From positions 276-64,275 of IMG/VR virus record IMGVR_UViG_3300037400_003675: a stretch of DNA of 64,000 bases. The stretch is one strand, 5' to 3'. Below the pieces are notes generated by a model. That model searched no databases. It saw only the letters and a list, made by a program, of their open reading frames with translations, and was not told the origin of the DNA. This document shows, one piece after another, positions 8,911 to 38,873 of this stretch. The stretch's first letter is position 1; each line of letters begins with the position of its first letter. The DNA is from a virus. Lineage: Duplodnaviria > Caudoviricetes. The position numbers and the translations under genes were made by a program.

Positions 8911-8924
8911 ATGGAGGAAACGAT

Positions 8925-9083
8925 ATGGATAACATTACAATCAAGAACTTACCGAACGGCTATGTCGAGCTGAAGGCAAATGCCGGCTACTCCCTGTTTT
9001 CGCTGGATCTCGAAAGGGTCGTGTCGGAAGCGGTGGTGAAACCTGAAGGAATCAAGGACTTTATCGCTAAAGCGGAGGATTAA
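8925..9083 (+). CDS. 52-aa hypothetical protein (MDNITIKNLPNG...)
   Basis: Manual translation. GGAGG lies upstream and the ORF fills the gap before the holin. Confidence 0.65.
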   Translation: MDNITIKNLPNGYVELKANAGYSLFSLDLERVVSEAVVKPEGIKDFIAKAED

Positions 9084-9086
9084 GCA

Positions 9087-9584: not shown

Positions 9585-9585
9585 C

Positions 9586-10056
9586 ATGGCAGAAGAGCGC
9601 GGCATATTGGAGCGCCTGTGGAAGAAGGACTCCTACACGGTAGGCAGGTTCTACCTCCGTGGGCGCATAGTGTGCAACACCCTTGAGGACAAGGATCGGG
9701 GGCTGAAGCAGTCCGATGACCTCGCCTACATACAGGAGAATAAGGTGTACGGCCAGACGGCCATCCCGAAGGGAACCTACAAGGTGGTGTTCACGGTGTC
9801 CGAGAAGTTCAAGAACAGGGCCTGGGCAAAGCCGTACGGCGGCAAGGTGCCCGAGCTCCTCGGAGTGAAGGGATTCTCGGGCGTCAGGGTGCATCCGTTC
9901 AACCGGGCGGAAGAATCCCTCGGCTGCATCAGTTTCGGCGAGAACAAGGTCAAGGGGCAGGTAATCAATGCTACCAAGTGGTATTACCATATCCTTAACA
10001 ATTACTGGATTCCGGCCTGGAATCGCGGCGATGACGTAATCCTTGAAATCATATGA
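9586..10056 (+). CDS. DUF5675-family putative endolysin
   Basis: CNTLED, AIPKGTY, GVRVH and SLGCI motifs, adjacent to the holin. Confidence 0.75.
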   Translation: MAEERGILERLWKKDSYTVGRFYLRGRIVCNTLEDKDRGLKQSDDLAYIQENKVYGQTAIPKGTYKVVFTVSEKFKNRAWAKPYGGKVPELLGVKGFSGVRVHPFNRAEESLGCISFGENKVKGQVINATKWYYHILNNYWIPAWNRGDDVILEII

Positions 10057-10217
10057 CAAGAGAAGATGCCGTAAGCAAGATATTGTCCGACCTGGGGCTT
10101 CCGCGGTCCTGCGAGGACTATGTGTATCAGATGATGGGATTGCTCGGCTGCGACGATGACCTCGACCCCGAGACGGTCAGGGGCGTGGAGCTGGTGATCA
10201 AGAGGGATATGAAATAA
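10053..10217 (+). CDS. 54-aa hypothetical protein (MTREDAVSK...)
   Basis: Manual translation; ATGA overlap with the previous stop. Confidence 0.6.
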   Translation: MTREDAVSKILSDLGLPRSCEDYVYQMMGLLGCDDDLDPETVRGVELVIKRDMK

Positions 10218-10231
10218 GTATTTGTGTTATT

Positions 10232-10759
10232 ATGGAAGAAAAGAAACGAGTGAAGGTCCAGCCTGGGCCGTTAATCTTCAATGTGATAGGCTACGATTCC
10301 CGGCTGTTCATGCTAACGCTTCTTATGATGCCGGGGATAGCATCCTGCGGGATATGCAAGCCGGTGAAGCTGCAAGTGGAGTACAGGGATTCGGTCCGCG
10401 TGGAGATCCGCGAGCGGGTCGTCCACGACACGGCCACCTTCGAGGTTCCCGGTGAGGTGGAGCGCATCGTAACCCGTGACACCTCGTCACGCCTTGAAAA
10501 CTCCTACGCGGTGAGTGAGGCCGTCGTCACCGGCGGGCTCCTCCACCACAGCCTCCGGACAAAGCCCCAGACAATCGAGGTCCCCGTGGCCGTACGGGTC
10601 CGGGACACGACGACGGCCCACACCAGCAGCGCCGTCGAGGAGCAGAAGATCATCGAGGGTCCCCGCGAGCTGACGTGGTGGCAGGAATTTCGGCTCAAGG
10701 CGTTCTGGGTCCTCGTGGCAAGCCTTGCCATAATCGTATTCGTAGTGTTCAAGTTTTAA
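10232..10759 (+). CDS. Putative unimolecular spanin-like lipoprotein
   Basis: Hydrophobic stretch ending in lipobox-like IASC, a beta-rich middle and a C-terminal TM helix, within the lysis cassette. Confidence 0.55.
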   Translation: MEEKKRVKVQPGPLIFNVIGYDSRLFMLTLLMMPGIASCGICKPVKLQVEYRDSVRVEIRERVVHDTATFEVPGEVERIVTRDTSSRLENSYAVSEAVVTGGLLHHSLRTKPQTIEVPVAVRVRDTTTAHTSSAVEEQKIIEGPRELTWWQEFRLKAFWVLVASLAIIVFVVFKF

Positions 10760-10775
10760 TCATAAATCTATCATT

Positions 10776-11045
10776 ATGGGAAATTGGATTCGTAAAATCT
10801 GGAACTGGATTGTGAAGCAGCTTTACAAGGTTCCATTCGACAAGTGGCTGCATTTCATTGCCGGTCTCATCATCGGCGCTTTCTTCTGCATTACCCTCGG
10901 GATGAAAGCAGCGATAGTCCCCGTCATATTCGCCGGATTCATTAAGGAGTTCTTCGATATGTGGACTACCGATAAGGCAGACTGGTATGACTTCCTGGCG
11001 ACCGTGATAGGCGGCCTGGTAATCCAACTCTTCGTCATCATCTGA
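10776..11045 (+). CDS. Small membrane protein
   Basis: 89 aa, DKWLHF...D.LAT..GG pattern, hydrophobic. Confidence 0.7.
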   Translation: MGNWIRKIWNWIVKQLYKVPFDKWLHFIAGLIIGAFFCITLGMKAAIVPVIFAGFIKEFFDMWTTDKADWYDFLATVIGGLVIQLFVII

Positions 11046-11064
11046 CATTGCGGGGGCATAGAAT

Positions 11065-11191
11065 AAAAAAAAGCCCCCGGATTTGTAAAAGCATCACCAA
11101 ATACAAAATTGCGCCATATTGCGCCGGGGACTTTAAGAGTCGTCAGCAATGTGGCGTAAAGTTGTATTTATTGTGATGCACTGCAAATGTA
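11065..11191 (-). ncRNA. Promoter-driven structured short RNA or attenuator, antisense to the lysis cassette
   Basis: TACATTTG at 11191-11184, two interleaved inverted repeats, and a U8 tract. Confidence 0.5.
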
Positions 11192-11197
11192 ACAAAA

Positions 11198-11596
11198 ATG
11201 TCTGACATTGAGAACATTGGGAAGAAAATTTTATTAGAATTTCTTGATTTTGTTCGGTTTAAGGTAGAGAACGACGCCGTGGCCTGCGTGAGCAAGATGT
11301 ATTACCGCGACGAGAACGGAAACAAGCACTCCGCCCCGTATTGGTCGGAGCCCCAGGTGCGTGCGGTCTATGAGAAGGTCGCCAAGCGCATTCCGGGAGC
11401 ATACACCTTCTGGGACTTCTATGTGACGCTCAATATGATTGCCAGCGACAACTGGCCAGTCATCCAGAAGTGGTTCCCCGGAGCTGATGAGCAGGCGAAA
11501 ACGGAGAAGGCGGTTGATCTTGCCGTCGCCTGGCTGGACGACCCGGACAACCCCTATGGGGACAGCAAGACCTGGGACTATCTCCACGCGAAATAG
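11198..11596 (+). CDS. Hypothetical protein
   Basis: 132-aa ORF, last gene of the rightward operon. Confidence 0.7.
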   Translation: MSDIENIGKKILLEFLDFVRFKVENDAVACVSKMYYRDENGNKHSAPYWSEPQVRAVYEKVAKRIPGAYTFWDFYVTLNMIASDNWPVIQKWFPGADEQAKTEKAVDLAVAWLDDPDNPYGDSKTWDYLHAK

Positions 11597-11621
11597 ACTC
11601 TCTCCCGTTCCAACCCTATAT

Positions 11622-11660
11622 AAAAAGTCCCTCCTGCCGCAGAGATGTGCCGGGAGGGAC
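11622..11660 (-). terminator. Terminator at the convergence of late (+) and early (-) operons
   Basis: GTCCCTCC/GGAGGGAC stem with an A5 tract that gives a U tract on the minus strand. Confidence 0.65.
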
Positions 11661-11687
11661 AATCAGTAGAGAGAGTGTATCGTTAAG

Positions 11688-12377
11688 TTATAACTTTTTA
11701 AGGTCGTTAAGCAGGTTTTTAAGGTTTTCGTAGTTCAGACTCCAATGGAACACCTTAATCATCTTTACATTATCCCTTGTGTTAAGGTTGTCCAATTTAT
11801 CCAAAAGCAGACAAAGGTCAGTTACTTGTTGCTCGCTGGGCTTCCAATGAGTTTGCTCCGCGAATTGAATCCCATCTTGCCTGCCTCGTTCATATTCAAG
11901 ATTCCCAAACTTCACGAAATCCTCTTTTGACAAGCCGGGTTGGGGACAAAGGGATTTGAGGAATTTTTGAAGTTCCACAGCTTCATCGGGATTGATAATT
12001 TTATACTTATCTGTACAAGAGCCTGCCCATTCAATAATACTAATAGCCCGTTTAAGCAATCCTTCATCTTCCTTGCTCCACTCTGCTAGCTTCTGTTCTT
12101 GTTTTTCCAGCCTTCTGCCCTCCTTCACCCCCTCCTGAAATGCTTTTGTATCGAGGATTTCGGGGGCTTGCTCTTTCTGCCTTTCGAGATAGGCAATAGC
12201 ATCTTTTAGATTATACCCATTCATTTCTACCCAGTAAATAAGGTCTTTACCTTCGTTAAGCAATTTAATCAAGGCTTGCCTTATCCTCTCGTCCTCGCTT
12301 TCCTTTTTGATAAAGACAACCTTGTTGCCTTCAATCTTGGCTTCATAGCCTTTGGGAATTGTAATTTCTTTATCCAT
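11688..12377 (-). CDS. Modular hypothetical early protein (paralogue of 20992-21642)
   Basis: Start at MDKEITIPKG. Shares the PQPGLSKEDF.KFGN.EYERGRQDGIQFAE module. Confidence 0.7.
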   Translation of the reverse strand: MDKEITIPKGYEAKIEGNKVVFIKKESEDERIRQALIKLLNEGKDLIYWVEMNGYNLKDAIAYLERQKEQAPEILDTKAFQEGVKEGRRLEKQEQKLAEWSKEDEGLLKRAISIIEWAGSCTDKYKIINPDEAVELQKFLKSLCPQPGLSKEDFVKFGNLEYERGRQDGIQFAEQTHWKPSEQQVTDLCLLLDKLDNLNTRDNVKMIKVFHWSLNYENLKNLLNDLKKL

Positions 12378-13247: not shown

Positions 13248-13619
13248 TTACTTTTTACCATTCTTTTCAAAGTAGAACACAACCTCTGGCGGCATCTCCA
13301 CTACCAGCCCGTACCTCACCATCATACGATAGGTGAAATCCCTCCTGCAACATATCTGACCGCGCTGCAAGGCGTTACGGAAATTCTCCAACGATAGTGC
13401 GCCTTTGCGATAATTGCAAGGGCGGCAGGCTGGCATAAGGTTGTCTATATCATCGCTGCCCCGTTGCTTCCCCAGCTCGCGGAGATCTGCATCGCTTAAT
13501 GTGCGATTTTTCGGCACGAGGTGGTCTATCTGCATATCCTCCAGCGCTATAATCCTGCCGCAGTATGCACACCTGCCCCCGTATTTAAGATATATTTCCG
13601 TGCGTTGTACTTTGCCCAT
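13248..13619 (-). CDS. HNH endonuclease
   Basis: CAYCG, IDHLVP and NLMPACRPCNYRKG motifs. Confidence 0.88.
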   Translation of the reverse strand: MGKVQRTEIYLKYGGRCAYCGRIIALEDMQIDHLVPKNRTLSDADLRELGKQRGSDDIDNLMPACRPCNYRKGALSLENFRNALQRGQICCRRDFTYRMMVRYGLVVEMPPEVVFYFEKNGKK

Positions 13620-23004: not shown

Positions 23005-23475
23005 TCAAGGACGAAGGCCCAAACGAGGGTCGCGGCCCGTGATGGTGAAACCGAACGCAATCATATCCTTCTTGCCCTCAATGCACAGCAAATTAACGAC
23101 CGGTTCATGTATAAAATCCGCGTTTTTCGTCAGCACCTGGCATCGTACGCCTTTGGTGATCGCGTACCTGATGCATCGCCCATTCAGCTCCCTCGTTTCC
23201 GGAATCATCGGATCGCTGGAGAAGGTGAAGAAGAGGCTGGACTTGCGGAGTTCGTCAAGATTCTCGTGGAGTTCTTTCTTGAACACCTCGTAGGCGTGTT
23301 CCTCGTCCTTGAAACACGACTTCAACTTGGCGACAGGACCACCCATCGCGTGAGAGAGCAAGCCCTTCTTGCAATAGCAATAGGAGCAGTTGTTGCTGCA
23401 TCCCACATAGAGGTTGCAGGCCCATTCGGCGTATTCGCCAGCCTTGCCCTTCGGCTTATAGATTGCTTTACTCAT
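23005..23475 (-). pseudogene. Radical SAM protein, apparently C-terminally truncated
   Basis: CSNNCSYC (CxxxCxxC) motif, but only 156 aa and it ends abruptly after GFTITGRD. Confidence 0.6.
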
Positions 23476-28929: not shown

Positions 28930-29006
28930 TTGCTTGCAATTTGCTTGCAGCATTTTTGAAGGGTAAGCGCAACTTATTGACAACTAAATACTTGCAAGGG
29001 TGCAAA

Positions 29007-29054
29007 CCTGCCTTACAAGCAGGGGGTCGGCGGTCCGAATCCGTCTGCGCCCAC
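29007..29054 (+). other. attP core: 3' part of tRNA-Val(TAC)
   Basis: CCTGC-CTTACAA-GCAGG anticodon arm, GGCGG-TCCGAAT-CCGTC T-arm and TGCGCCC-A acceptor strand. No 5' half; lies upstream of the integrase. Confidence 0.85.
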
Positions 29055-29257: not shown

Positions 29258-30547
29258 ATGGCAAACTTATACATCTTCTTTGACAAGCGCTCCCCGCGCA
29301 AGGACGGGACGGGGACATTGAAACTCGCGCTGACGCACCGGCACAAGACCGTCTATGAATCCCTTGGCATCCGCGTCAAGCCGGACGAGTGGGATGCCGG
29401 CAAGTGCCAGGTGGTCACGCGGCCCGACAAGAAGTTCCAGAACGTCATACTCCGCAAGCGCCTTGCCGACGCGACGATGGCGCTCCAGCGGATCATGCTG
29501 CGCAGGGACTTCGCCACGTTCTCCGCCAGGGACATAATGACGATGCTCATAAGGGGCACGGACACGAACGATGCGCAGGACAACGCGGACTATGTGCTGC
29601 CGGTTTACAGGGATTACATATCCCTGCTGAAGAAAGCGACCACGAAGGGCATCTACCGCACCTCGCTGAACAACCTGATAAAGTATGAGCCTGACATAGA
29701 CAACCTGCGTTTCAGCGACATCACCGTGGCTTGGTTGCGCCGGTACCAGCAATGGCTCACGGAGACCAACGGGATGTCCGTGAACGGGGCGAACGTGTAC
29801 CTGCGTAACCTCCGCACCATCTTCAACTACGCCCTGGAAAACGAGCTGACCGCAGCGCACTATCCGTTCAAGAGCATCGACATGGCGACCACCGATCCGG
29901 ACAAGCGGGTGGCACCTTATGACAAGTTCCTGCGCTGGGTTGATTGCCCGATAGACGAATCCCTCGTTCCGTTCCGCGACCTCTTCCTGCTCGCGTTCTA
30001 CCTCTGCGGCATCCGTCCGATAGACCTCCTGACAGTGAAGAAGGACCAGATACGCGAGGGGCGGCTCGTTTACTGGCCGCAGAAACTCAACGGCAAGACC
30101 AAGCTGTCAGTCAAGATAGAGCCGGAGGCCCAGGCAATCATCAACAAATACTCCGGGCAGGAGCTGATGCTCAACTTCATGGAGGGCAGGTCGGACTACA
30201 AGGCGTTCGGCAAGCGGTGGAACAGGGCGCTGCGGATGGTCGGCACCGGTCTCACCATCGCGGGGGCGGATGCTTACACGGAAGAGGTGCGGCGGAAGAG
30301 GAAAAGCGGCGTCATCCCCTACATTTCCGCGTACCACGCAAGGCGCTGCTGGTCCACCTACGCCTACAACATACTCGGCCAGCCGATGGACGTGGTCTCC
30401 CAGGCGCTCGGGCACAAGAGCGGACTGCGCGTGACGAACTTCTATGTGAAGAGGGATGCGGCCCTCGCTGACAAGGCAAACCGCGACTTGATTGACCGGC
30501 TGCACAAGGATCTGGCGGAACTCCGCAAGAAAGGCAGCGAGGAATGA
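29258..30547 (+). CDS. int: Tyrosine integrase (Bacteroidota type)
   Basis: Arm-binding N-terminus, SAM-like domain, catalytic GIRPIDL, YHARR, LGH and Y residues. Confidence 0.93.
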   Translation: MANLYIFFDKRSPRKDGTGTLKLALTHRHKTVYESLGIRVKPDEWDAGKCQVVTRPDKKFQNVILRKRLADATMALQRIMLRRDFATFSARDIMTMLIRGTDTNDAQDNADYVLPVYRDYISLLKKATTKGIYRTSLNNLIKYEPDIDNLRFSDITVAWLRRYQQWLTETNGMSVNGANVYLRNLRTIFNYALENELTAAHYPFKSIDMATTDPDKRVAPYDKFLRWVDCPIDESLVPFRDLFLLAFYLCGIRPIDLLTVKKDQIREGRLVYWPQKLNGKTKLSVKIEPEAQAIINKYSGQELMLNFMEGRSDYKAFGKRWNRALRMVGTGLTIAGADAYTEEVRRKRKSGVIPYISAYHARRCWSTYAYNILGQPMDVVSQALGHKSGLRVTNFYVKRDAALADKANRDLIDRLHKDLAELRKKGSEE

Positions 30548-30551
30548 AACG

Positions 30552-30592
30552 AGAAAGGGCAGCCACGAATATCGTGACCGCCCTTCTTCTTT
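30552..30592 (+). terminator. Terminator after the integrase
   Basis: AAGGGC...CACGA-ATA-TCGTG...GCCCTT stem with a T-rich tail. Confidence 0.55.
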
Positions 30593-30616
30593 GCACATAC
30601 ACCTGACAAGGCTTGG

Positions 30617-30640
30617 TTGATTGCTTGATTGCTTGATTGC
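30617..30640. repeat. TTGATTGC x3 tandem repeat
   Basis: Three exact 8-mers at the junction of int and the anti-defence block. Confidence 0.7.
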
Positions 30641-30901
30641 CTATTCTATGCCGTAGTCCTGCGCTATGTCTTTCACCCACAGCTCGAACTGCCGGTTGAA
30701 CGAGAGGTCGTCCTCCTTGGTCATCTCGCGCAGAGCCTTAACCCTGCGGAGGGTATCTGCGGTAACACGGAACGAGAGGTGCTCGCTTATGGGATTCTCC
30801 ACCATCTTCGTGCCCTTCTTCCTGCCTGCGCCCTCGCGCCTGCCACCCCAGCCCTTCTCGGACGGGGTGGTCTCCTTTTTCTTCTTGGTTGATGCTGCCA
30901 T
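30641..30901 (-). CDS. Small basic DNA-binding protein (GGRREGAGRK motif)
   Basis: Start MAASTKKKK; AT-hook-like motif followed by an RHH-like segment. Confidence 0.6.
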   Translation of the reverse strand: MAASTKKKKETTPSEKGWGGRREGAGRKKGTKMVENPISEHLSFRVTADTLRRVKALREMTKEDDLSFNRQFELWVKDIAQDYGIE

Positions 30902-30923
30902 AATAACTATGTAATCTTGGTTG

Positions 30924-31214
30924 TCAAAATGCCGTTCTCGTACCCTTGACCGCCCACACGGGGAGAAGTCTGCGCAGGAGCAGACCGCGATACACATACC
31001 CCCTCCTTGCCGTGAGGTACGCGAGTTCTTCGTGTCCGTCCTGGAAAGTAACCACGCGCCAATGCCTGTCGGTGCAGGACACCGCCTTGGCTATCCTCCC
31101 CCGCCTGCGGGAGACTTCCGCCCATTGCTCGGTTGTCAATCCCTGCGGCACTGCCACGCCCTTGGGGAAGAGTGTGAGATACCGCAGGTCTGATAGTGTC
31201 CGTTTCCGTTTCAT
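30924..31214 (-). CDS. Hypothetical basic protein
   Basis: 96 aa, just downstream of TAACTTTG (31230-31223). Confidence 0.5.
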   Translation of the reverse strand: MKRKRTLSDLRYLTLFPKGVAVPQGLTTEQWAEVSRRRGRIAKAVSCTDRHWRVVTFQDGHEELAYLTARRGYVYRGLLLRRLLPVWAVKGTRTAF

Positions 31215-31227
31215 CACGCAGGCAAAG

Positions 31228-31443
31228 TTAGCAATTTTCTTTCACCTCTGCGGTATAGACCGCAATGGTATCTCCGTGATGATACTGAATTTCCACGCCC
31301 TCGCGGAGTTTGCGTGGCACAAGGTGCAGTCTCTGCGCTGCGAGAATCAGCTTGTCATAAGCCATAGCAGTACTATTGAACGGATAGGAGAAGATAGGTC
31401 TCCGACCTACCCTCTCCGTGGTCTTGTAGATTGTTGTCGCCAT
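31228..31443 (-). CDS. Hypothetical protein
   Basis: 71 aa with an A-rich AACCAATCAAGAT upstream. Confidence 0.6.
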   Translation of the reverse strand: MATTIYKTTERVGRRPIFSYPFNSTAMAYDKLILAAQRLHLVPRKLREGVEIQYHHGDTIAVYTAEVKENC

Positions 31444-31464
31444 ATCTTGATTGGTTGATTGATA

Positions 31465-31710
31465 CTATTTGAGGATGACTACTACCGCACCCATTCCCAC
31501 CTCTCGGGCATCCCCTACGGAAGTGGCGTTTTCAAAGGCGAGTATATCCTCTCCGTCAAATCCCTCTTCCTCCAGCTCGCTCCACTCGTTGAAGAGGATG
31601 ACGATAGCACCCATAGGGCAGTTGCTGTGGATTGTGTGTACGACTGCGATTGCGTGGTCGTAGAGTTGCTCCTCGTTCAAGGAGACATCGTTGGTTGTGT
31701 ACTTTTTCAT
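31465..31710 (-). CDS. Small acidic protein
   Basis: 81 aa, strongly acidic; possible DNA mimic (inference). Confidence 0.65.
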   Translation of the reverse strand: MKKYTTNDVSLNEEQLYDHAIAVVHTIHSNCPMGAIVILFNEWSELEEEGFDGEDILAFENATSVGDAREVGMGAVVVILK

Positions 31711-31782
31711 CTTGATTGTTGTTTAATGGTTGATATATGGGAGCGGTAGGCAGGTATCAGCCACCTACCGCCATTGGGAACT

Positions 31783-33213
31783 CTATGCGACCTGCGCAGC
31801 ACCGCCCTTGGCTGCTGCCTTGACCTGCCACATATTGTCGGTCATAGTCTTGACAATCTCTTTGTGCAGGGGCGTAAAGCTATCGTGCGGTCCATAGCAT
31901 TGGAGTATCTTGTAACTCCTTAAATCTATCTCCAAGGTCTCTATGGGGTTGTTGTCCGCATCCCTCGCGGATAGTATCAGCGACCCCTCTTTCTTGTAGT
32001 AGCCACAAGCATACACGCAGTGGTGCAGGGTGTTGCCCTCGCGCTCAAAGTCATCTACACTCTGGAGCGCGACAATGGTAAAGCCTGCGGTGGAGGGGAT
32101 GCTGATGCCGAAGTATTTTCCCCTGCGCTTGATGAAGTCCTCGTTGGTCTCCTTTCGCGTGAGCATCGCCTGCCTTGCCCTCTCCCTCGCCCATTCATCC
32201 TGCTGCCTGCGCCACCTCTCTTCCTCTATCCTCCGCCTGCGTTGTCTCTCGGCAACGAGTGCGTTGTGGGCATCGTGCAGGTTATCGGGGCAGAGGAACT
32301 TGGGATTGTGGGTGTCCATATCAAGACAATGCAGCATATCCACCATATCGCGCCACTCGCGCAGGTCGGCAATCTCATATCCGTGCCTGCGGACAATCTT
32401 TATCTGCGCCCAGTACTCATTGATTCTGCGCTTGAAGAATGTGGCGAGTTTCCACTCCCCTGCCTTCCACAAGGTCTCAAACGCAGGATACTCTGCCATA
32501 GTGTCAAGTATCCAATCAAGTTTAAGTCCGTGCGTCTTGTCGGGGTCTATGCCCCTCTTGGTCAGTTCTGCGGAAAGGGAGAAACTTGCAGGGATGCGGT
32601 ATCTCTCGGTGGTCTTGCATTCCGTATCGCTGCCTATTCCGTCCTGCGCGAAGTGTCTTGTGTACGAACGCCAAAACTTTGAGTAGTACATACCGCCCAA
32701 ACGAGCGATATAGTGATAGGTGTTGCCACCCTTTGTCCAGCTCGCGCCAATGTCCTCTATATTGACCTGCGCAGGCTTTCCTGGGACACCATAGTCGTGC
32801 CTAACGAAATATCGGGTTATCTTCCACTCTCCCATAGTGGCATTAACCGCGATAATATCCTCAAACCTTTGATGCTTATACGCCCCACCTTTCTCAATCT
32901 TCATCTGCCTGCCACAATGGGGACAAGTGCCGAGGTACTTATACCAATAGTGGTAGTATTTCGATTCAGCAGGAATATCGGGATTTCTGCGGAAGTCCTT
33001 GACCTCGGATAACGGAAACTCCGCACCGCACTCGCTGCACCAATAGATGTCTTTCGCCTGCGCCCTCTTGCCATACTTGGCAGCGCACATAGAGTGCTTG
33101 TAGGGGTGCGCCACGAAAGACATTACGCGCTTGCCGAGTTCCCCGAACTTCGGGAGCATCTTGTCAAGGAACATAATCTCGGCTTTGTCAAGTTGTTTTT
33201 GATTTCTTTTCAT
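31783..33213 (-). CDS. PcfJ-like protein
   Basis: C-terminal EGNTLHHCVY...SLILSAR...IETLEI...QCYG; N-terminal CSECG...CPHCG zinc ribbon. Confidence 0.85.
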   Translation of the reverse strand: MKRNQKQLDKAEIMFLDKMLPKFGELGKRVMSFVAHPYKHSMCAAKYGKRAQAKDIYWCSECGAEFPLSEVKDFRRNPDIPAESKYYHYWYKYLGTCPHCGRQMKIEKGGAYKHQRFEDIIAVNATMGEWKITRYFVRHDYGVPGKPAQVNIEDIGASWTKGGNTYHYIARLGGMYYSKFWRSYTRHFAQDGIGSDTECKTTERYRIPASFSLSAELTKRGIDPDKTHGLKLDWILDTMAEYPAFETLWKAGEWKLATFFKRRINEYWAQIKIVRRHGYEIADLREWRDMVDMLHCLDMDTHNPKFLCPDNLHDAHNALVAERQRRRRIEEERWRRQQDEWARERARQAMLTRKETNEDFIKRRGKYFGISIPSTAGFTIVALQSVDDFEREGNTLHHCVYACGYYKKEGSLILSARDADNNPIETLEIDLRSYKILQCYGPHDSFTPLHKEIVKTMTDNMWQVKAAAKGGAAQVA

Positions 33214-33225
33214 AGCATCATAGAT

Positions 33226-33978
33226 TTAGAAGAGTGAGAACTCGGTCATAGTGTAGGTTTGTCCGTCTTTCTTGATAGTGGTCGTGCGAGTGCCCTCGGC
33301 ATCCGTCTTGACTATCTTCGCGGATAGAATGTTGCCCTTGTCATCTTTCTTCTCGGTGGTCTTGGTAACGGCAATCTCTCCGCTATCGGTAATCTTCGCA
33401 CCTCTCTTCATCAGCGCATCAAGTAGGGGGTTTGCCTTGACTTTCTTCTCGGTCTCTTCCCTCTTCTTCTGCTCTGCGGTCTTTTCGGCTTTCTTGGGCA
33501 CATAGGGTTTCAGCGAGGGGCACTCTTTCTCAATGGTCTCCTTGCTCTCGGTGTAGTAGTGCACCGCCCAACCGAACACCTCTGCATCCTCAATCATCGC
33601 GCAGTTGCCACTTGCCTTCTTCCTTGCCTGCGCGGTAATGTATGACCAACACGAATGAATGTCCTTGTCCTTGGACTGCATAGCGGTTGCGAGTGCTTGG
33701 TCGCCCTCGTTTGCCCTGCGCTGCATTTCATTGAGGACAATCTGCTCATAGGGAGAAAGTTTCTTCTCCTTGGTCTCCTGCTCGGCAGATCCAGCGGACT
33801 TTTCTTCATCCGTTGCCTGCTCGGTCTCTCCGCAGTCCTCTTCGGTGGTATCTTCATCATCCACCACCTCTTCGGTCTGCTCGTTGATTGGCTCTTCTGC
33901 CACCACCGCCTGCGTGGGCGTGGCGTTCTGCTCGGTCTCCTCTTGGATGCCGAACAAATCATTGATTTCTTCTGCCAT
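33226..33978 (-). CDS. PcfK-like protein
   Basis: Start MAEEIND; K.I..CWSYI..QARK......A.IEDAEVFGWAVHYY motif; adjacent to pcfJ. Confidence 0.8.
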   Translation of the reverse strand: MAEEINDLFGIQEETEQNATPTQAVVAEEPINEQTEEVVDDEDTTEEDCGETEQATDEEKSAGSAEQETKEKKLSPYEQIVLNEMQRRANEGDQALATAMQSKDKDIHSCWSYITAQARKKASGNCAMIEDAEVFGWAVHYYTESKETIEKECPSLKPYVPKKAEKTAEQKKREETEKKVKANPLLDALMKRGAKITDSGEIAVTKTTEKKDDKGNILSAKIVKTDAEGTRTTTIKKDGQTYTMTEFSLF

Positions 33979-34046
33979 AATGACTTGGTTTTGATTGTTG
34001 ATAATTGGGGGTATGGGGAAAGTATCAGTCTCCCCATACCAAGGTG

Positions 34047-34277
34047 TCAGTAGTTGATTGGCGCAGCCTGCTCGTTGGTAACGAGACAATGAGTGAGCGC
34101 ATTGTTGGTCTTGGCTACGATGCTGCCACAAGAGGTCAGCCATATCTGCCTTGTCCTCTCGGTCTTGTGCAGGTCGGAGTGGATGCCTTGGGCATCCCTG
34201 CGGATGAACTCGGTGCAGAGTATCTGAATGGTTGTCAGTTCGGTCTGCGTGAGCGTTACTTGCGTTTCGTGTATCAT
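34047..34277 (-). CDS. Hypothetical protein
   Basis: 76 aa from MIHETQV. Confidence 0.5.
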   Translation of the reverse strand: MIHETQVTLTQTELTTIQILCTEFIRRDAQGIHSDLHKTERTRQIWLTSCGSIVAKTNNALTHCLVTNEQAAPINY

Positions 34278-34282
34278 AGTCC

Positions 34283-34594
34283 CTACTCCTTGATGATTGT
34301 TACCTTGTTGGCTACCACCTCGGTGGAGCATCGCTCCACTCCGTAGGTGTCAATGTAGCGGTTGTTGCGCAGCCTGCCGAGGACATAGACCTTGTCTCCG
34401 CATCGGAGTTCGCTCGGCTTGTCCGAGAAAGCGGAGACGGAGAGCCAAGTGGTCTCTACGACTGCGTTGCCCTGCTTGTCCTTGTAGGCGAGGTTTGTCG
34501 CCACTTGAAAGCGCGTGTGATGCTTGTCGGCAACGAGGTTGGAACTGACATTGCCGACTATGCCACGCAGTTCCACTTTGTTGAGTTGTTCCAT
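34283..34594 (-). CDS. ssb: Second, tailless SSB
   Basis: LNKVELRGIVG, ETTW and VYVLGRLR OB-fold motifs; no acidic C-terminal tail. Confidence 0.85.
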   Translation of the reverse strand: MEQLNKVELRGIVGNVSSNLVADKHHTRFQVATNLAYKDKQGNAVVETTWLSVSAFSDKPSELRCGDKVYVLGRLRNNRYIDTYGVERCSTEVVANKVTIIKE

Positions 34595-34620
34595 ATTGGT
34601 CGTGATGATTGGTTGATTGT

Positions 34621-34866
34621 TTACTTGTCGTGATGAAAGAATACCTCTTCGGTGTCGTAGTCCTCTGCGTTGAGTTCATTGTCAATGCAATAGTCCTCAA
34701 TGCAGTTGTTCATTTCGTAGTAGAGCGAGGGTTCAGCCATTGCGAGGGAACACCTCTGCCTGTCCATTATCCCCCACGCGATGCTCTCGCGCTCGGAGAA
34801 GTCCTCTATGTTCTTCTTGCAGTAGTCATAGAGGACTTTGTTGGTGGGTTTCCTGCTCCTGCTCAT
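34621..34866 (-). CDS. Small acidic hypothetical protein
   Basis: 81 aa. Confidence 0.65.
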   Translation of the reverse strand: MSRSRKPTNKVLYDYCKKNIEDFSERESIAWGIMDRQRCSLAMAEPSLYYEMNNCIEDYCIDNELNAEDYDTEEVFFHHDK

Positions 34867-35075
34867 AGGACACTGACATTGCTGCCGTTTACCTGCAACT
34901 GCACCTTGCCCTCGCAGAGCATATAGCTTATCTCGCTTTGGGGGTAGCCTTGGGCATCAAGGTATTCTTCCACCTTGTAGGCATCCCCTCGTTCCTCGGT
35001 AGTCGCTGCGATTTCCTGCGGAATGTCCACGATAGAGACAATTCCGTCTGCGTAGTTGAGAATGACCGCTTTCAT
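34863..35075 (-). CDS. Small hypothetical protein
   Basis: 70 aa with an ATGA overlap. Confidence 0.65.
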   Translation of the reverse strand: MKAVILNYADGIVSIVDIPQEIAATTEERGDAYKVEEYLDAQGYPQSEISYMLCEGKVQLQVNGSNVSVL

Positions 35076-35076
35076 A

Positions 35077-35412
35077 TCACTTGCCCTCCCTGATTATCTC
35101 TTCTGCGATGCGTTCTCCGTCGGGGATGAAGTACCGGTAGTCCTTACCGCTCTTCGCGCTCCTGCGGATGACATAGCAAGTGGTCTTTCCTGCCTTTTCT
35201 CCCTTGGTGTAGGTGTGCAGGATGATAGGGTACTCGCTGCCCTTGTTGTCTCGCCACACATAGTCGGTAACTCGGTCATCGGGCAGGATTTGGGATGCTG
35301 CGCTCTGGACAAAGACATTGCCCTCTCGCGTGTAGTTCTTGGTGTCGCGCTCTTGCGCCCCTGCGCTTATGGCTGCCACAAGCAATGCAAGGATGATGAT
35401 GCTTTTACGCAT
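35077..35412 (-). CDS. Secreted hypothetical protein
   Basis: Start MRKSIIILALLVAAISAGA, a Sec signal peptide. Confidence 0.7.
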   Translation of the reverse strand: MRKSIIILALLVAAISAGAQERDTKNYTREGNVFVQSAASQILPDDRVTDYVWRDNKGSEYPIILHTYTKGEKAGKTTCYVIRRSAKSGKDYRYFIPDGERIAEEIIREGK

Positions 35413-35677
35413 AGTTGATTGTATAGATTTTGAATGGTTTCTCGTTGGGAAAGTAGGACAACTCAATCACAATCTCTCCCTCGGTCTCCCTCGTTGCGAT
35501 AGCGAGTTGCTTGTATCGGGATTGCTCCCACTTGATTGCGTTCCTGCCCATAGCGATTGCCTTGGCTTTCGCCTGCGCGAAGTCCACGAAACCGAAGAGT
35601 TTGGTGTCCGCGCTCCTGCGTAACCGCATATCATCGTGATAGCGGTTGTCAATCGTGAGGTGTACGAAGTTCTGCAT
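35405..35677 (-). CDS. Hypothetical protein
   Basis: 90 aa. Confidence 0.6.
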   Translation of the reverse strand: MQNFVHLTIDNRYHDDMRLRRSADTKLFGFVDFAQAKAKAIAMGRNAIKWEQSRYKQLAIATRETEGEIVIELSYFPNEKPFKIYTINYA

Positions 35678-35747
35678 CTTGATTGGTGTTTGTAAGTTGT
35701 GGGGGCTATGGGAGAGGTCAGTCGCCCATAACCAAGGGGTTGATAGT

Positions 35748-36104
35748 TCAGAGGTCTGCGCCTATCGTTCTGCGGAGTTCTTTCAGTCGCTCATAGCCGT
35801 TGAGGATTATCTCCTGCAACTCTTCGGGCGTTTTGTCGGGTAGCCCGTCTTTCTTGCAGCATTGGTCAAGATTGTCAATGATGCTGCCGATTTCGTTGTG
35901 GATAGCCTGCAACTTCTCCCTATCCTGCTCTCGCTGCCAATGCGTGAAATACTTGCAATCATCCGCATAATCTTTAAGCGAGAAACAATCCACGAACTCT
36001 TCGTGTCCGTGAGGGCAATACTTGGTGTCCCACCTTGCGCATATTGAAGTATTCTGCGCCACGATTTCCGAGACTTTCAAGTCAAGTGTGTAATTTTCTT
36101 CCAT
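35748..36104 (-). CDS. Hypothetical protein
   Basis: 118 aa. Confidence 0.65.
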   Translation of the reverse strand: MEENYTLDLKVSEIVAQNTSICARWDTKYCPHGHEEFVDCFSLKDYADDCKYFTHWQREQDREKLQAIHNEIGSIIDNLDQCCKKDGLPDKTPEELQEIILNGYERLKELRRTIGADL

Positions 36105-36116
36105 ATCTGCGAGTGT

Positions 36117-36455
36117 TTAAGCGGTTGCGTATCTTACTCTCTTTCCGTAGGGAAGAGCGAGGGAAAGTGCCATTTCATCCACCTTGTCGCGGTAGTCAAT
36201 ATCGGGCAGGTAGATAGTGATATAACCCCACGAACACTCTATTATCTCCACTGGCTCGTTCTTGGCGAATGCGCCCACTATGGAGCGAATATCGCAGCGA
36301 GTGGGCAGGGTGTCGGAATTGACTATTCCGTTGCGGAAATACTTGTGCCCGACCTCTACGCAGTCAATCTGCAACTTGGCGTTGTGCGCCTTGGCGCAGG
36401 CTCTCAATGCTTTGAGCAAGTTCTGCTCATTGGGGATGATTTGTTTCTTGTTCAT
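36117..36455 (-). CDS. Hypothetical protein
   Basis: 112 aa. Confidence 0.65.
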   Translation of the reverse strand: MNKKQIIPNEQNLLKALRACAKAHNAKLQIDCVEVGHKYFRNGIVNSDTLPTRCDIRSIVGAFAKNEPVEIIECSWGYITIYLPDIDYRDKVDEMALSLALPYGKRVRYATA

Positions 36456-36533
36456 AACTTTGTGATTTAGTGATATTGGGGAGTGCGCAGTCGGTCAAGA
36501 CCACGCACCCAAGGGGGAGGAAAGGGGCAGGCA

Positions 36534-37061
36534 TCAATAGAAGTAGTAGCCATCATCCTCCCAATAATCCACCATAAGGCTATGCCCATAGGCTTCGCAA
36601 TCAAAATAGTTCTCTATCGTTGCTCTGATGCCCTCGGGAATGGAGGGGAGGATAAACTCTTCAAACTCTCTCCGCCCAAGTTCTTCCTCATCCTCAAATT
36701 GCCCGATATAATGCTCGTTCGCCTCGCTCACGAGTTCATCTATATCCGTATCATCATCAATGCTGATAGATTTCGCCCTGCAATAGTGCTCAACGATGTC
36801 TGCATCATTATCATCCAGCGCAATCAAGTCCCAAACTATTGGAGATACCCAACTCTCCGAAACGAAGTTTTCGGGGATATACTCGCGGTCTTGGAACATA
36901 AACTCGGGGTCGGTTTCATCCTTGTGGAGTTCCTTGCAAGCCTTGTAGAAATCTTCCTTGCTATCATAGTCCGCCAAGTTCATCCACTTGCCGAAAAGAC
37001 TACCGCAGTTGTACTTGTGATAAGTGCCTACATAAATGGCTGCTTTCTTAATGTCGCTCAT
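36534..37061 (-). CDS. ardA: Antirestriction protein ArdA
   Basis: IYVGTYHKYNCGSLFGKW, DPEFMFQD and YFDCEAYG motifs; highly acidic. Confidence 0.93.
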   Translation of the reverse strand: MSDIKKAAIYVGTYHKYNCGSLFGKWMNLADYDSKEDFYKACKELHKDETDPEFMFQDREYIPENFVSESWVSPIVWDLIALDDNDADIVEHYCRAKSISIDDDTDIDELVSEANEHYIGQFEDEEELGRREFEEFILPSIPEGIRATIENYFDCEAYGHSLMVDYWEDDGYYFY

Positions 37062-37351
37062 AATGTGTGTGATTTATTGGTTTATAACTGGGAGTGCAGG
37101 GCGTAACATTCAAACCCCCTGCACCATAAGAGTAAAGCATTGAGCAAATCCGTCTTTTAAGTTGTCGCAATCATTATCGCCTTGTCTATCTCGCATCTTC
37201 GCACCTTTTCACTATGGACACACAAGTACAAGCCTTGCAGTTTCATCCCCTTGGATACCACCCCAAAGGCATAGCTTAATCCGTTGCATTTCAGCGAGTT
37301 AGTGTATGTCAATGAACTGCCCGAAAGCCGTTTCCATTGGCTTTGCTACTG

Positions 37352-37359
37352 CAAAGGTA
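37352..37359 (-). promoter_or_regulatory. -7 promoter element TACCTTTG upstream of ardA
   Basis: TAnnTTTG match preceded by an AT-rich upstream region. Confidence 0.65.
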
Positions 37360-37884
37360 TAAATAATTTTGATTTGTTGTAACACTTTTAATCAAATTTT
37401 TTTAACTTTTTCTCTCATTTTGTTTTAGAGGGCTTGTAATGTGCTGATATTCAGTATGTTACAAAATGCATTTTTACCGCATTTGTTTTTGTCAAAACTT
37501 GACACTATCCCGAGCATCCTTAATAATTCAAGCAGCAATCCGCAGGCATCTGCCATTTTGGGGCGTAAGTCGTTGATATTCAAGGGGGTAGAAAGACTCC
37601 CCCAAAAAGGTCTCTCGCACCCCATTTTGCGCAAATCGTGTACCGAGGGGGCAAAATCCGCAGGGCAAAAGGTGTGGAACTTTCCTAATAGGCAGGGGCA
37701 AAAGGGCATCGCAGGCATCTGCAAGGGGGATTTGTGGGAAACCTTGCAAGCATTTGAGCAAGCATCGGCAGAAAAGTGTGCGCTCTGGGGTGTGTTTTCG
37801 TGGGTATGGGCAAGATTGAAAAGGAACTCCATATTGCCCCCATTTATAGTATCAATCGCTCAATATGGATAAAACCCGAAATAG

Positions 37885-37903
37885 TTTCCTGGGGCCCCAG
37901 AAA
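37885..37903. other. Palindrome TTT(C)CTGGGGCCCCAGAAA, candidate packaging or terminus site
   Basis: Perfect 12-bp palindrome at 37889-37900, at the edge of the restriction-site-depleted block. Confidence 0.4.
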
Positions 37904-37948
37904 GAATGCTTAATGATTCTTGCGTGGCGGTTGGGTGTGGATCGGCGC

Positions 37949-38013
37949 TGTGGTGTGAATGGTGTGGGTGTATGTGGTGTATGTGGTGTATGTAGTGTGT
38001 GTTGGTGTATGGG
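37949..38013 (+). repeat. C-free G/T-rich tract with GGTGTATGT x3
   Basis: Exact units at 37967, 37976 and 37985 plus degenerate copies. Confidence 0.75.
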
Positions 38014-38349
38014 TCCCATAAGGATGGTTATTAAAGAAGAAACCCTCTCCTGGACTGTCGCAGCCGAGGGGAGGGGTAGATTCTTGTTATGAAAAGACCT
38101 CAGCACCGGTGTTGTCAAGACAGAAAGAACCCTGAGCACTAAAAACCAAGTAGATAAGCATTCCAAAGAGAACCGGTGCCGATACAAAGGTAGTAAAGAA
38201 ATGTGAAAGTTGAGCCGAGGTGGTGGCTGGAAGCGCAAAAAATATTTTTGTGGCGTATTGGTGTATATATCAGGCGTTTATGAGGGGTAAGTGGGACATT
38301 GTGGGACACAAGTTGTTCACGGGTAGTGAAATTTTCGGGGAAATGTTTA

Positions 38350-38480
38350 TACCTTTGTAGTGGTGTTGGGTGGGAACGGGGTGTGAACATACGATAGTTA
38401 TCCCTGTGAGGGGACACTATAGAAACGTCTGCATCGCCCCATCCCGAGACAACACCACCTCTACTGCAGGCGTTTTTTTT
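38350..38480 (+). ncRNA. Promoter-driven structured short RNA or attenuator
   Basis: TACCTTTG at 38350, interleaved stems GTGGTGTTG/CAACACCAC and AAACGTCTGCA/TGCAGGCGTTT, and a U8 tract. Confidence 0.5.
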
Positions 38481-38873
38481 ATTGTGCATGAGAGAGCGGT
38501 CGGGGATCAGGAAGGACCTATCGGGGAAACTTACGTTCGGCCTTCCGTAGAAAGGAGCAGAAGAATGACAGCGCAGCTCCAGCCTGGGGTATAATTCCTG
38601 CCGGGTGCTGTTAGCCCATACGAGGGTTGAAGGCGGGATAACTCGTTCCATTCGTAGTGGCGAACGAGGCTCGACGTGCGAGGTACTGGCTCCGTAGAGG
38701 GACCTTGGATGAGAGAGCGCACTCCCTGATCCGCCGTTTCGGCGGGTTAGGGGTTATTGTGCTCTCTATACTCGGAGACTTCACCATAGAGGGGTTTATT
38801 CTTTCAGAGAATAGATAATAATATATTTCCCGATTTTCGTCAAAATTTTCCCGGAAATTCGCATCTTTGCGGT

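Follow-up and report, generated by a model that had tools for sequence, protein, structure and literature searches.

A sharply bordered restriction-site-depleted block coincides with a probable early anti-restriction operon in a temperate podophage of Bacteroidota

A block almost devoid of palindromic restriction sites was identified in the 64,000-nucleotide stretch of DNA analysed here (hereafter the window), which derives from a circularly assembled 64-kb temperate podophage of Bacteroidota that is uncultured. The block is a single leftward operon adjoining the integrase gene and encoding the anti-restriction protein ArdA, a short single-strand-binding protein (SSB), PcfK, PcfJ and small open reading frames (ORFs), and it very probably represents an early anti-restriction operon purged of sites by selection. 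The sites were probably lost because the block must work before the phage disarms its host. Staged entry of the phage DNA is offered as the reason for the purge only tentatively, its chance being put a little short of even.

Extent, controls and conservation of the depletion

The block is described by the following feature.

30693..37887, no strand: restriction-site-depleted block of 7195 bp, G+C 0.507 as against 0.553 in the window; delimited by site counts

Seven palindromic 4-mers (GGCC, CCGG, GATC, CATG, ACGT, TCGA and CTAG) were counted. Within the block they total only three, as against 126 expected from the rate outside it (one per 57 bp; Poisson P = 5e-50) and about 157 expected under an order-2 Markov model within the block, an observed to expected ratio of at most 0.05. 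The rest of the genome retains about 1000 such sites, while the block makes up about 11% of its length. The original prediction had described a near-absence of palindromic sites with sharp borders and had called for Markov-corrected counting, under which the depletion persists; its site counts were all reproduced for the span 30600-37885 (GGCC 0; CCGG 2, at 30692 and 35134; GATC 1, at 33788; CCWGG 2, at 31040 and 32780; TCGA 2, at 30684 and 32961). The depletion is stronger than first stated, CATG, ACGT and CTAG, which had been overlooked, being also absent from the block. GCGC and CGCG are undepleted, as had been noted, with 49 and 29 occurrences in the same span (GCGC 48 in the refined block 30693-37887), and the integrase gene is as rich in sites as had been claimed (10 CCGG and 5 GGCC).

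The exact borders lie at 30692/30693 and 37887/37888, fixed by the nearest outside sites at 30692 and 37888. The four longest inter-site gaps of the whole window (2759, 2269, 1346 and 827 bp) are consecutive and fall in the block; the longest gap obtained by random placement of sites in 2000 runs was 848 bp. A scan of 3-kb windows across the genome found none lying wholly outside the block with the same pattern, and a gradient of residual sites from the proximal to the distal part of the block (3 versus 8) was not significant.

The avoided words extend well beyond the seven 4-mers, with about 20 further type II and IIS motifs and ACAG/CTGT also depleted in the block, about 25 motifs overall. 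Synonymous codons were shuffled 500 times in 12 block genes, and none of the 500 shuffles was as low as the observed count for GGCC, CCGG, GATC, CATG, ACGT, TCGA, AGCT, CCWGG, GGNCC, GGNNCC, ACNGT, GANTC, GTSAC, GCSGC, CCTTC, GGTGA, CCATC, GACGC and ACAG, the observed count being reached by a single shuffle for CTAG. The same test revealed no depletion of GCGC, CGCG, TGCA, GTAC and ATAT. Asymmetric motifs are depleted on both strands. The non-coding leader within the block (826 bp, 37062-37887) carries none of the seven 4-mers and the adjoining non-coding DNA outside (983 bp) carries 14. To our knowledge no enzyme is known for the word ACAG/CTGT, which is the exception among the avoided motifs. 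The depleted words are overwhelmingly known type II or IIS sites, as judged from the REBASE-derived list in Biopython. GATC, CATG, ACGT and CTAG are mildly avoided genome-wide, and others only in the block.

The same site-poor block was found in four diverged relatives (G001, L011, L090 and L093; the present phage is referred to as G000). G001 and L011, with PcfJ proteins 55% and 31% identical respectively, have the same layout of an integrase followed by a convergent site-poor block; L090 and L093 have the block genes in common, with no integrase match on their short contigs. Scans of contigs in a genome collection found no relative. The avoided motifs were analysed in G000, G001 and L011. 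All three avoid CCGG, GGCC, GATC and CTAG, to which G000 adds ACGT, CATG, TCGA and ACAG, and G001 and L011 instead AGCT, CGCG and GCGC. Since the block is kept across diverged relatives while the motif sets differ by lineage, selection appears to be ongoing and the block not a recent import; at a divergence this large, the sites would have come back without selection. Such lineage-specific motif sets would be expected if each reflects hosts with a restriction repertoire of their own, and they provide indirect evidence for a match between the avoided words and the enzymes of the host.

The original prediction had itself named two explanations that would undo it. Local G+C content and codon usage are rejected by the Markov model and the synonymous-codon shuffles, and recent import is contradicted by the diverged relatives with avoided motif sets of their own. 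The sequence data thus support real selection against restriction sites as the source of the depletion, over G+C content, codon usage or recent import.

A further phage, G002, is 98% identical to the present one and has an unrelated 302-aa ORF in place of ArdA; the replacement gene is site-free, and the first-gene slot occupied by ArdA is variable between relatives. G002 also carries an IS30-like insertion inside the block, with about 25 sites in 1.1 kb, a normal site density. This insertion serves as a natural control for the loss of sites in the block.

Genes of the operon and its border element

The features of the block and its surroundings are given below from right to left, in the direction of the operon.

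37888..38870, unstranded: non-coding DNA just outside the block; normal site density; 9-bp tandem repeats at 37967-38002
37800..37870, minus: conserved non-coding element of ~70 nt at the upstream (right) border, from an alignment of five diverged genomes
37062..37799, minus: non-coding leader in the block; Bacteroidota-type promoter match (TAccTTTG) at ~37348-37368; inverted repeat I1
36534..37061, minus: ArdA anti-restriction protein, 175 aa; PF07275, E = 2.2e-21, profile positions 1-153 of 155
34621..36455, minus: six small ORFs with no assigned function (36117-36455, 35748-36104, 35405-35677, 35077-35466, 34863-35075, 34621-34866)
34283..34594, minus: short SSB, 103 aa; PF00436, E = 5.5e-13
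33226..34143, minus: PcfK-like protein, 305 aa; PF14058, E = 5.3e-12
31783..33213, minus: PcfJ-like protein, 476 aa, with N-terminal zinc ribbons; PF14284, E = 2.7e-29
30641..31710, minus: four small distal ORFs (31465-31710, 31228-31443, 30924-31217, 30641-30997)
30548..30640, unstranded: convergent intergenic region from the integrase stop to the last block gene; G+C-rich hairpin at ~30557-30585, then a T-rich run
29258..30547, plus: tyrosine integrase of Bacteroidota type (Arm-DNA-bind_5, Phage_int_SAM_5); outside the block, normal site density

The claim that the block starts with a promoter and ardA holds in that ArdA is the first recognisable gene, lying behind a leader with a promoter match; the genes are on the minus strand, however, so that the start is the right end of the block. 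The ArdA match to PF07275 is full-length (77.5 bits, curated cut-off 27). PcfJ is the conserved core gene of the block. Its AlphaFold model has a mean pLDDT of 89.7 and gave no Foldseek match in the PDB, where a sequence search returned only a zinc-ribbon match; no PDB sequence homologue was obtained for PcfK, for the large terminase or for two large portions of a giant protein described below. The PF14058 family is also present in G001 and L011, and a PcfK match was obtained in L090 by tblastn. Neither the six small ORFs, searched against Pfam and NCBIfam, nor the four distal ones gave a family match in those searches, and one of the six matches phrog_16207, a family without known function. 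The ORFs 34621-34866, 30924-31217 and 30641-30997 are kept in relatives. In the convergent intergenic region, TTGATTGC occurs in three tandem copies at 30615-30640, and the hairpin with its T-rich run is a predicted terminator. With regard to a possible T7-type early region with transcription-driven entry, the sequence offers a promoter consensus match at ~37355, ArdA as the first gene, the minus-strand orientation of all block genes and the putative terminator hairpin.

The ~70-nt element, present in one copy in the genome, consists of two conserved boxes flanking a variable spacer of 11-13 nt, with an A-rich tract upstream; an inverted repeat in it is followed by a conserved stretch. In all five genomes site density switches within 40 bp of this element and not at recognisable host-type promoters. 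The non-coding DNA at 37888-38870 is not conserved in relatives. No match to the element was found in the integrative and conjugative element (ICE) or plasmid loci.

Several other candidates at this border were discarded. The ORF 37425-37832, which starts in the element, is not regarded as a gene, its length varying among relatives (135, 49, 19, 25 and 85 aa), and the element is not taken for a structured RNA, as it has no covariation and no Rfam match. A 12-bp palindrome at 37886-37903 was rejected as a conserved pac or cos site because it occurs only in the present genome, whereas the neighbouring ~70-nt element is conserved. G000 and G002 were each assembled as a circle, closed by a 127-bp k-mer overlap at an arbitrary place; these overlaps are assembly artefacts inside genes or an insertion sequence, and contig ends were discarded as hints to the genome ends.

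Proposed staged entry and the alternatives to it

The block would be an early 'establishment' operon, transcribed leftward as one unit from the ~70-nt element to the convergent terminator region by the integrase gene and encoding ArdA, the short SSB, PcfK, PcfJ and about ten small proteins without assigned function. Host type II and IIS enzymes would select, continuously and per lineage, for the loss of sites, the leader included, as the DNA of the block would have to stay uncut and expressed until restriction is disarmed by its own products; protection of the remaining genome, with its ~1000 sites, would come afterwards. Under polar, staged entry starting from the ~70-nt element, the block would be the first and at that time the only DNA exposed, as in the first-step transfer of T5 or the transcription-driven entry of T7. 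While the loss of sites, its limits, its persistence in relatives with shifting motif sets and the gene content are observed, we infer restriction enzymes as the selective agent, and likewise the order of entry and the identity of the proteins protecting the rest.

It is plausible that the block DNA would enter first, in the manner of T5 or T7. The minus strand encodes the block and the following 19 kb of early genes (27-11.6 kb) throughout, in the direction of entry from 37.9 kb, an arrangement consistent with staged entry. The position of ArdA in a variable first-gene slot, like that of ocr in T7, is by analogy also consistent with it, as may be the capsid protein, which belongs to the SU10 family, given the fixed 193-bp terminal repeats of SU10 and phiEco32 (PMC4281155). 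For Murciavirus, only sites in the early-injected region are reported to matter for restriction (PMC12455610).

Other observations count against staged entry. The portal is P22-like and the type of the large terminase was not assignable. P22 packages its DNA by headfuls, and headful packaging leaves no fixed leading end. Promoter matches (TAccTTTG) lie outside the block at ~38190 (minus) and ~38350 (plus), and a match 300 bp outside the block pointing inward is a poor fit to a genome end at 37.89 kb. The limitation of ArdA to type I enzymes and the failure to find a DNA methyltransferase domain among the ORFs scanned also count against it. In addition, the edge of a CTn-type ICE carries an ArdA-PcfJ operon that is site-free over 3.9 kb, in a setting to which the notion of a phage-type leading end is inapplicable; this smaller block in a conjugative transposon suggests that first entry is not the sole route to such a block. 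PcfK and PcfJ also occur in Bacteroidales plasmids and in CTn elements. The idea that PcfJ/PcfK modules are depleted in general was rejected, depletion being absent in the pMMCAT plasmid, the Bacteroides phage BS-TP3 and most of 41 non-redundant loci; outside these loci, the first 50 kb of BF1-TP2, a portal relative with methyltransferases of its own, contain no depleted block.

The site-free operon of the ICE, a pattern of smaller scale and not at a phage end, favours instead an account without staged entry, which we consider possible though on the unlikely side. The whole genome would enter at once and only the anti-restriction operon would have to stay intact, so that selection acts on a single transcription unit. 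Breaks outside it would be mended by resealing or recombination once restriction has ceased; alternatively, a genome that has been cut would still produce the proteins of the operon and leave the cell suppressed for genomes arriving later, as in anti-CRISPR cooperation. The block does coincide with one operon, from the start element to the terminator region, and the two boxes, variable spacer and A-rich tract of the ~70-nt element resemble a promoter with a conserved leader. Breaks could be repaired by RecT, a PD-(D/E)XK-FtsK protein and a second SSB, all encoded by the phage; these recombination genes, however, themselves lie in site-rich DNA, and host exonucleases would quickly degrade an unprotected linear fragment. 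The border is at neither recognisable host-type promoter, and a cut at the sites found only 18 bp upstream of the element would put the promoter at the end of a DNA molecule. Enterobacterial plasmid leading regions, to which the same logic applies, show no systematic depletion of restriction targets (NAR 2026, PMC13478746).

Protection of the virion DNA over most of its length is improbable as an explanation. Most of this DNA would be shielded by modification or by a co-injected protein, the early operon alone being bare for the host RNA polymerase and so avoiding sites. A candidate for such a protein is the polyvalent protein of 5163 aa encoded beside the portal gene, which has ParB-like and SNF2-type helicase domains, and P1 provides a precedent in DarA and DarB, which are injected and protect DNA (cited in PMC12455610). 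The division between motifs avoided genome-wide (GATC, CATG, ACGT and CTAG) and those avoided only in the block suggests two tiers of protection. A radical-SAM match at 23005-23475 also speaks for this explanation, though it is weak and below the Pfam cut-off. Neither a DNA methyltransferase domain nor a base-modification pathway was found among the phage ORFs scanned. We know of no mechanism by which a single operon, bordered to within 40 bp, would be spared.

A conjugative leading region carried by a phage is still less probable. The ~70-nt element would be an oriT-like nick region, a conjugative transposon in the same cell would be able to mobilise the prophage or its circular form, and the ArdA-SSB-PcfK-PcfJ block would be a leading region in the strict sense. 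The genes are the set known from conjugative plasmids and transposons of Bacteroidota, the element contains an inverted repeat followed by a conserved stretch, and the depletion border falls exactly at it. Against this, the phage ORFs scanned gave no match to a relaxase or coupling-protein family, the element is unmatched in the ICE and plasmid loci, and most PcfJ modules of conjugative elements are undepleted. Conjugative DNA moreover enters as a single strand. Systematic depletion is absent from plasmid leading regions (PMC13478746). Finally, an artefact of composition or history, with the block recently imported from a differently composed host or depleted through local G+C content and codon usage, is scarcely credible: its lower G+C (0.507 versus 0.553) and the swapping of single cassettes such as ArdA between close relatives would fit, but the Markov and synonymous-shuffle controls reject a compositional cause, synteny is kept down to 31% PcfJ identity with a different avoided motif set in each relative, and truly recent DNA, the insertion sequence in G002, is rich in sites.

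The ArdA family inhibits type I enzymes only, so ArdA cannot account for the ~1000 type II sites tolerated elsewhere, and we know of no block protein that inhibits type II enzymes. Because ArdA leaves these sites unexplained, PcfJ, PcfK and the small ORFs would, if the proposal is true, be candidate inhibitors of type II restriction. It would also follow that sequence alone suffices to recognise, in uncultured phages, the early or leading segment and where it starts, and that the avoided motifs report the restriction enzymes each lineage actually meets. A wider form of the proposal, which we hold to be doubtful, is that DNA entry has its fixed physical start, be it a genome end or a transfer origin, at the ~70-nt element and that this podophage family and, in parallel, CTn-type conjugative transposons deliver an exchangeable ArdA/PcfK/PcfJ leading operon first. 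Site-free blocks would in that case serve, for uncultured elements, as a marker in the sequence of the polarity of DNA entry, of the cis start site and of the host population's restriction repertoire, and would point to PcfJ, PcfK and the small ORFs as a shortlist of new type II restriction inhibitors.

Comparison with known systems

The principle that only the first-exposed DNA must avoid sites is already known from T5 and, for a type I system, from T7-like phages (Murciavirus, PMC12455610). It is seen here as a very clean compositional signature of about 25 motifs in a gut or rumen-type temperate phage family of Bacteroidota, with a sharp border marked by a conserved cis element and an avoided motif set that differs per lineage.

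A close likeness is to the first-step-transfer (pre-early) DNA of T5, a delimited segment with early anti-host genes and without the EcoRI sites that are present elsewhere; a site acquired in this DNA renders the phage sensitive to restriction, an early function protecting the remainder (as cited in PMC12455610). The present block likewise lacks sites that occur elsewhere and encodes early anti-host functions. The T5 segment, however, lies in the long terminal repeat of a lytic siphovirus whose two-step entry was shown experimentally, whereas the block belongs to a temperate podovirus of Bacteroidota and is known from sequence, and the purge covers about 25 motifs as against one tested enzyme in T5.

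Conjugative plasmid and ICE leading regions share ArdA, SSB, PcfK and PcfJ with the block and express anti-defence genes first (Nature 2024, PMC11541004; PMC13478746). The phage differs from them in that no oriT, and no relaxase among the ORFs scanned, was found, and most PcfJ modules examined in conjugative elements are undepleted. As enterobacterial plasmid leading regions show no such signal (PMC13478746), the parallel in the CTn-type ICE is also noteworthy.

With T7 (gene 0.3/ocr) and Murciavirus the block shares a type I anti-restriction gene in first position, ArdA here and Ocr in T7, together with the variable first-gene slot and the early genes co-oriented with the proposed direction of entry of T7-like phages; in Murciavirus, too, only motifs in the early-injected part count for restriction (PMC12455610). 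The published case differs in concerning a type I motif with few sites, whereas many type II and IIS sites are lost here at the level of composition; a phage RNA polymerase was not found in the present phage, and any fixed terminal repeat in it would be putative.

Genome-wide avoidance of restriction sites in phages has reportedly been described by Sharp in 1986, Rocha in 2001 and Rusinov in 2018. In both cases short palindromes fall below compositional expectation, mildly so outside the block for GATC, CATG, ACGT and CTAG; the strong avoidance described here differs in being limited to a stretch that makes up 11% of the genome and whose borders are sharp on a scale of tens of base pairs.

The phage and the operon

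The virus record is a single contig of 64,275 bases, 64,000 of which make up the window. The ends of the record share exactly 127 bases, the k-mer overlap of the assembler, and the assembly is therefore circular with a length of approximately 64.1 kb. The portal is of P22 type and the major capsid protein of SU10 type; further products are a large terminase, RecT, a PD-(D/E)XK-FtsK protein, a DnaB-like helicase, an SSB and a polyvalent protein of 5163 aa in which ParB-like, SNF2-type helicase and LPD38 domains are recognised. The genome also codes for a CI-like HTH protein, and its tyrosine integrase has a Bacteroidota-type arm-binding domain; Bacteroidota-type promoter matches (TAnnTTTG) occur in the non-coding DNA, and the PcfJ relatives in named records are all from Bacteroidota plasmids, conjugative transposons and phages. 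Gene content, promoter type and PcfJ relatives together point to an uncultured temperate podophage with a predicted host in the Bacteroidota. At 28998-29053 (+), 200 bp upstream of the integrase gene, there is a weak tRNA-like Rfam match that just reaches the gathering score (29.5 bits); ARAGORN predicted no tRNA there, and the stretch is a candidate attP core. The distal end of the early operon, where GC is low, carries an HNH endonuclease gene (13248-13619, minus strand; PF01844, E = 1.9e-10).

The site-depleted block (30693-37887, 7195 bp) is one operon with its leader. All of its genes are on the minus strand and the block thus begins at its right end. The original prediction of a start with a promoter and ardA holds for the promoter match in the leader and for ArdA as the first gene, but the start is the right end.

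Features of the block, from its right end (all minus strand)
0.8 kb: non-coding leader; promoter match (TAccTTTG) near 37355
36534-37061: ArdA, first gene after the leader
Between ArdA and SSB: six small ORFs without family matches
After the six small ORFs: SSB, 103 aa
After SSB: PcfK-like protein
31783-33213: PcfJ-like protein, 476 aa
After PcfJ, last in the block: four small ORFs

Integrase is convergent to the operon; its stop and that of the last block gene, at 30641, are 94 bp apart, with a hairpin and a short tandem repeat in between. The first sites on the left (30681-30692) fall within the last 50 bp of the last block gene and those on the right (37888-37896) 18 bp beyond a conserved border element. 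Tandem repeats edge the block on both sides: three units of 9 bp (GGTGTATGT) at 37967-38002, 80 bp beyond the right border, and three of 8 bp (TTGATTGC) at 30615-30640, just past the last gene.

ArdA is known to act against type I enzymes alone, and the phage ORFs scanned include no recognisable methyltransferase. PcfJ belongs to a widespread family among Bacteroidota mobile elements. Its AlphaFold model is confident (mean pLDDT 89.7). It predicts a large beta domain and a C-terminal alpha/beta domain, together with zinc ribbons and one very long helix, and a Foldseek search of the model against the PDB gave no match with an E-value of 0.001 or better.

Loss of sites and its controls

Seven palindromic 4-mers (GGCC, CCGG, GATC, CATG, ACGT, TCGA and CTAG) have a total of 3 occurrences in 30693-37887, as against 126 expected from the density outside the block (Poisson P = 5e-50) and about 157 when an order-2 Markov model is fitted to the block. 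Ranked by size, the top four gaps between such sites anywhere in the window follow one another, all within the block. A recount reproduced every count of the original prediction for 30.6-37.88 kb (GGCC 0, CCGG 2, GATC 1, CCWGG 2, TCGA about 2), to which zero counts of CATG, ACGT and CTAG in the block are now added. AGCT, AATT and TATA are reduced, while GCGC and CGCG, for which Markov counts and synonymous shuffles bear out the earlier statement that they are not depleted, and TGCA, GTAC, ATAT and TTAA show no reduction.

A wider screen, covering the recognition sites in Biopython's REBASE table and complemented by synonymous-codon shuffles, extended the losses to CCWGG, CCSGG, GGNCC and GGNNCC (counts down to 0 versus 14-25 expected), to ACNGT, GANTC, GTSAC and GCSGC, and to CCTTC, GGTGA, CCATC, CCCGC, GACGC, GAGTC and GAAGAC. 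Six-base palindromes without an avoided core are about 2-3-fold low. The non-palindromic ACAG/CTGT is nearly gone (3 versus 28-38 expected, both orientations), and its count is also low in the L011 relative (8/41), less so in G001 (22/45); we know of no restriction enzyme for this motif.

Local composition and coding bias were examined as causes and ruled out. The shuffles change neither the encoded proteins nor the codon usage of the block, the asymmetric motifs are depleted in both orientations, and the non-coding leader has 0 sites in 826 bp, compared with 14 sites in 983 bp of non-coding DNA just outside; together, these exclude a compositional or coding artefact. The depletion, non-palindromic motifs included, is explained neither by the Markov model nor by codon usage.

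Avoidance is present in two tiers. GATC, CATG, ACGT and CTAG are moderately avoided throughout the genome (observed/expected outside the block 0.36, 0.36, 0.47 and 0.04, respectively; CTAG has 3 copies in 64 kb), while CCGG, GGCC and TCGA are near normal outside (0.72-0.78) and avoided only in the block. The two tiers suggest that some enzymes may be neutralised after the early phase and others not.

Related phages, the border element and other PcfJ loci

PcfJ searches identified one near-identical phage and four diverged family members. Among the latter, G001 (64,831 bp) has a PcfJ 55% and a portal 73% identical to those of the window phage, L011, from a 63,169-bp contig, has a PcfJ 31% identical, and two shorter contigs (L090, L093) carry the block genes and part of the gene order of the other two. 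In G001 and L011, as in the window, nozzle-side genes (homologues of the 182-aa and 977-aa ORFs) are followed by non-coding DNA, the block and then integrase, HTH and RecT, and the block is the sole strongly site-poor region of each.

CCGG, GGCC, GATC and CTAG are avoided in all three blocks compared. The window phage additionally avoids ACGT, CATG, TCGA and ACAG, while G001 and L011 avoid AGCT, CGCG and GCGC, abundant in the window phage (48 GCGC), and tolerate TCGA and, in L011, also ACGT. Protein identities of 31-55% imply DNA saturated with changes, and only continuing selection within each lineage can then have kept the sites out; a recent import from a different host, the alternative raised with the original prediction, is thereby contradicted. 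The lineage-specific sets would fit different host restriction repertoires. The site-poor block of L093 (569-3600) tolerates CTAG, with 6 copies in 3 kb, although the other genomes have almost none.

The near-identical phage, G002 (IMGVR_UViG_3300037512_001825; about 98% identical), has L169:1-1414 and L170:662-1373 in place of window positions 36517-37067. An unrelated, site-free 302-aa ORF without a Pfam family replaces ArdA, and an IS30-like element in the leader (326-aa transposase) provides a natural control, as its site density is normal at about 25 in 1.1 kb.

The border element, a stretch of about 70 nt (37800-37870), is the only DNA kept between the window phage and G001 in a 1.8-kb non-coding region. 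It occurs in 5/5 diverged genomes, one copy in each, as two conserved boxes with an 11-13-nt variable spacer and an A-rich tract upstream. In each of the five the change in site density comes no more than 40 bp from it: from 32-47 sites per 1.5 kb upstream (13 in the available 0.5 kb of L093) to 3 kb downstream in which only lineage-specific tolerated motifs are present. Candidate roles for it are an early promoter whose leader is conserved, a nick site, and a packaging or terminal site. A gene start was rejected, as the ORF beginning there is not conserved; covariation for an RNA fold and Rfam matches were not found, and a 12-bp palindrome adjoining the element is not conserved in the relatives.

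The depletion is mostly not a property of the PcfJ gene module. Flanking DNA was sufficient at 41 non-redundant PcfJ loci, and of these only the ones in this phage family have modules from which 6-8 palindromes are nearly absent; neither the pMMCAT plasmid nor Bacteroides phage BS-TP3 shows depletion in the module, and BF1-TP2, a distant portal relative with its own methyltransferases, has no depleted block in its first 50 kb. The exception is one group of CTn-type conjugative transposons. In L158 (metagenome contig Ga0129307_1000104), 3.9 kb (8106-12039) with small ORFs, ArdA and PcfJ has zero GGCC, CCGG, GATC, CATG, GCGC and CGCG. It takes up the extreme edge of the element, and the chromosomal gene next to it encodes threonyl-tRNA synthetase; on the element, the neighbours are TraJ, TraM, TraN and primase, and the tra side retains 17 CCGG, 22 CATG and 15 GCGC. 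A weaker version is seen in L121:5600-12500.

Confinement of avoidance to the operon

The block is very probably an early anti-restriction operon from which selection excludes type II/IIS sites. Simultaneous exposure would make sites anywhere equally dangerous, and therefore either exposure is ordered or breaks outside the operon are tolerated. Tentatively, DNA entry may be ordered in time with the block exposed first, as originally proposed. T5 first-step-transfer DNA and Murciavirus provide precedents (PMC12455610), the border is at a conserved cis site and not at a recognisable host promoter, ArdA holds a variable first-gene slot as ocr holds that of T7, the block and the next 19 kb of early genes are co-oriented with entry from 37.9 kb, and the capsid is of the SU10-type lineage, cultured members of which have fixed 193-bp terminal repeats (PMC4281155). 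However, the portal is P22-type, a promoter match 300 bp outside the block is directed into it, and in the conjugative transposon L158 a fixed phage end cannot be the reason.

Selection for template integrity without staged entry, with breaks outside the operon tolerated, is possible though rather unlikely. That the block is an unprotected island within otherwise shielded DNA is improbable and an oriT-like start still more so, while an artefact or import can practically be discounted.

Localised site avoidance in first-entering DNA is a known principle, and as localised avoidance the block is an unusually clean case. For enterobacterial plasmid leading regions, a 2026 study found no systematic signal of localised avoidance (PMC13478746). 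The present analysis adds a comparison across the family, with motif sets that differ by lineage, as well as the conserved element at the border, the IS serving as natural control, and the parallel in a conjugative transposon.
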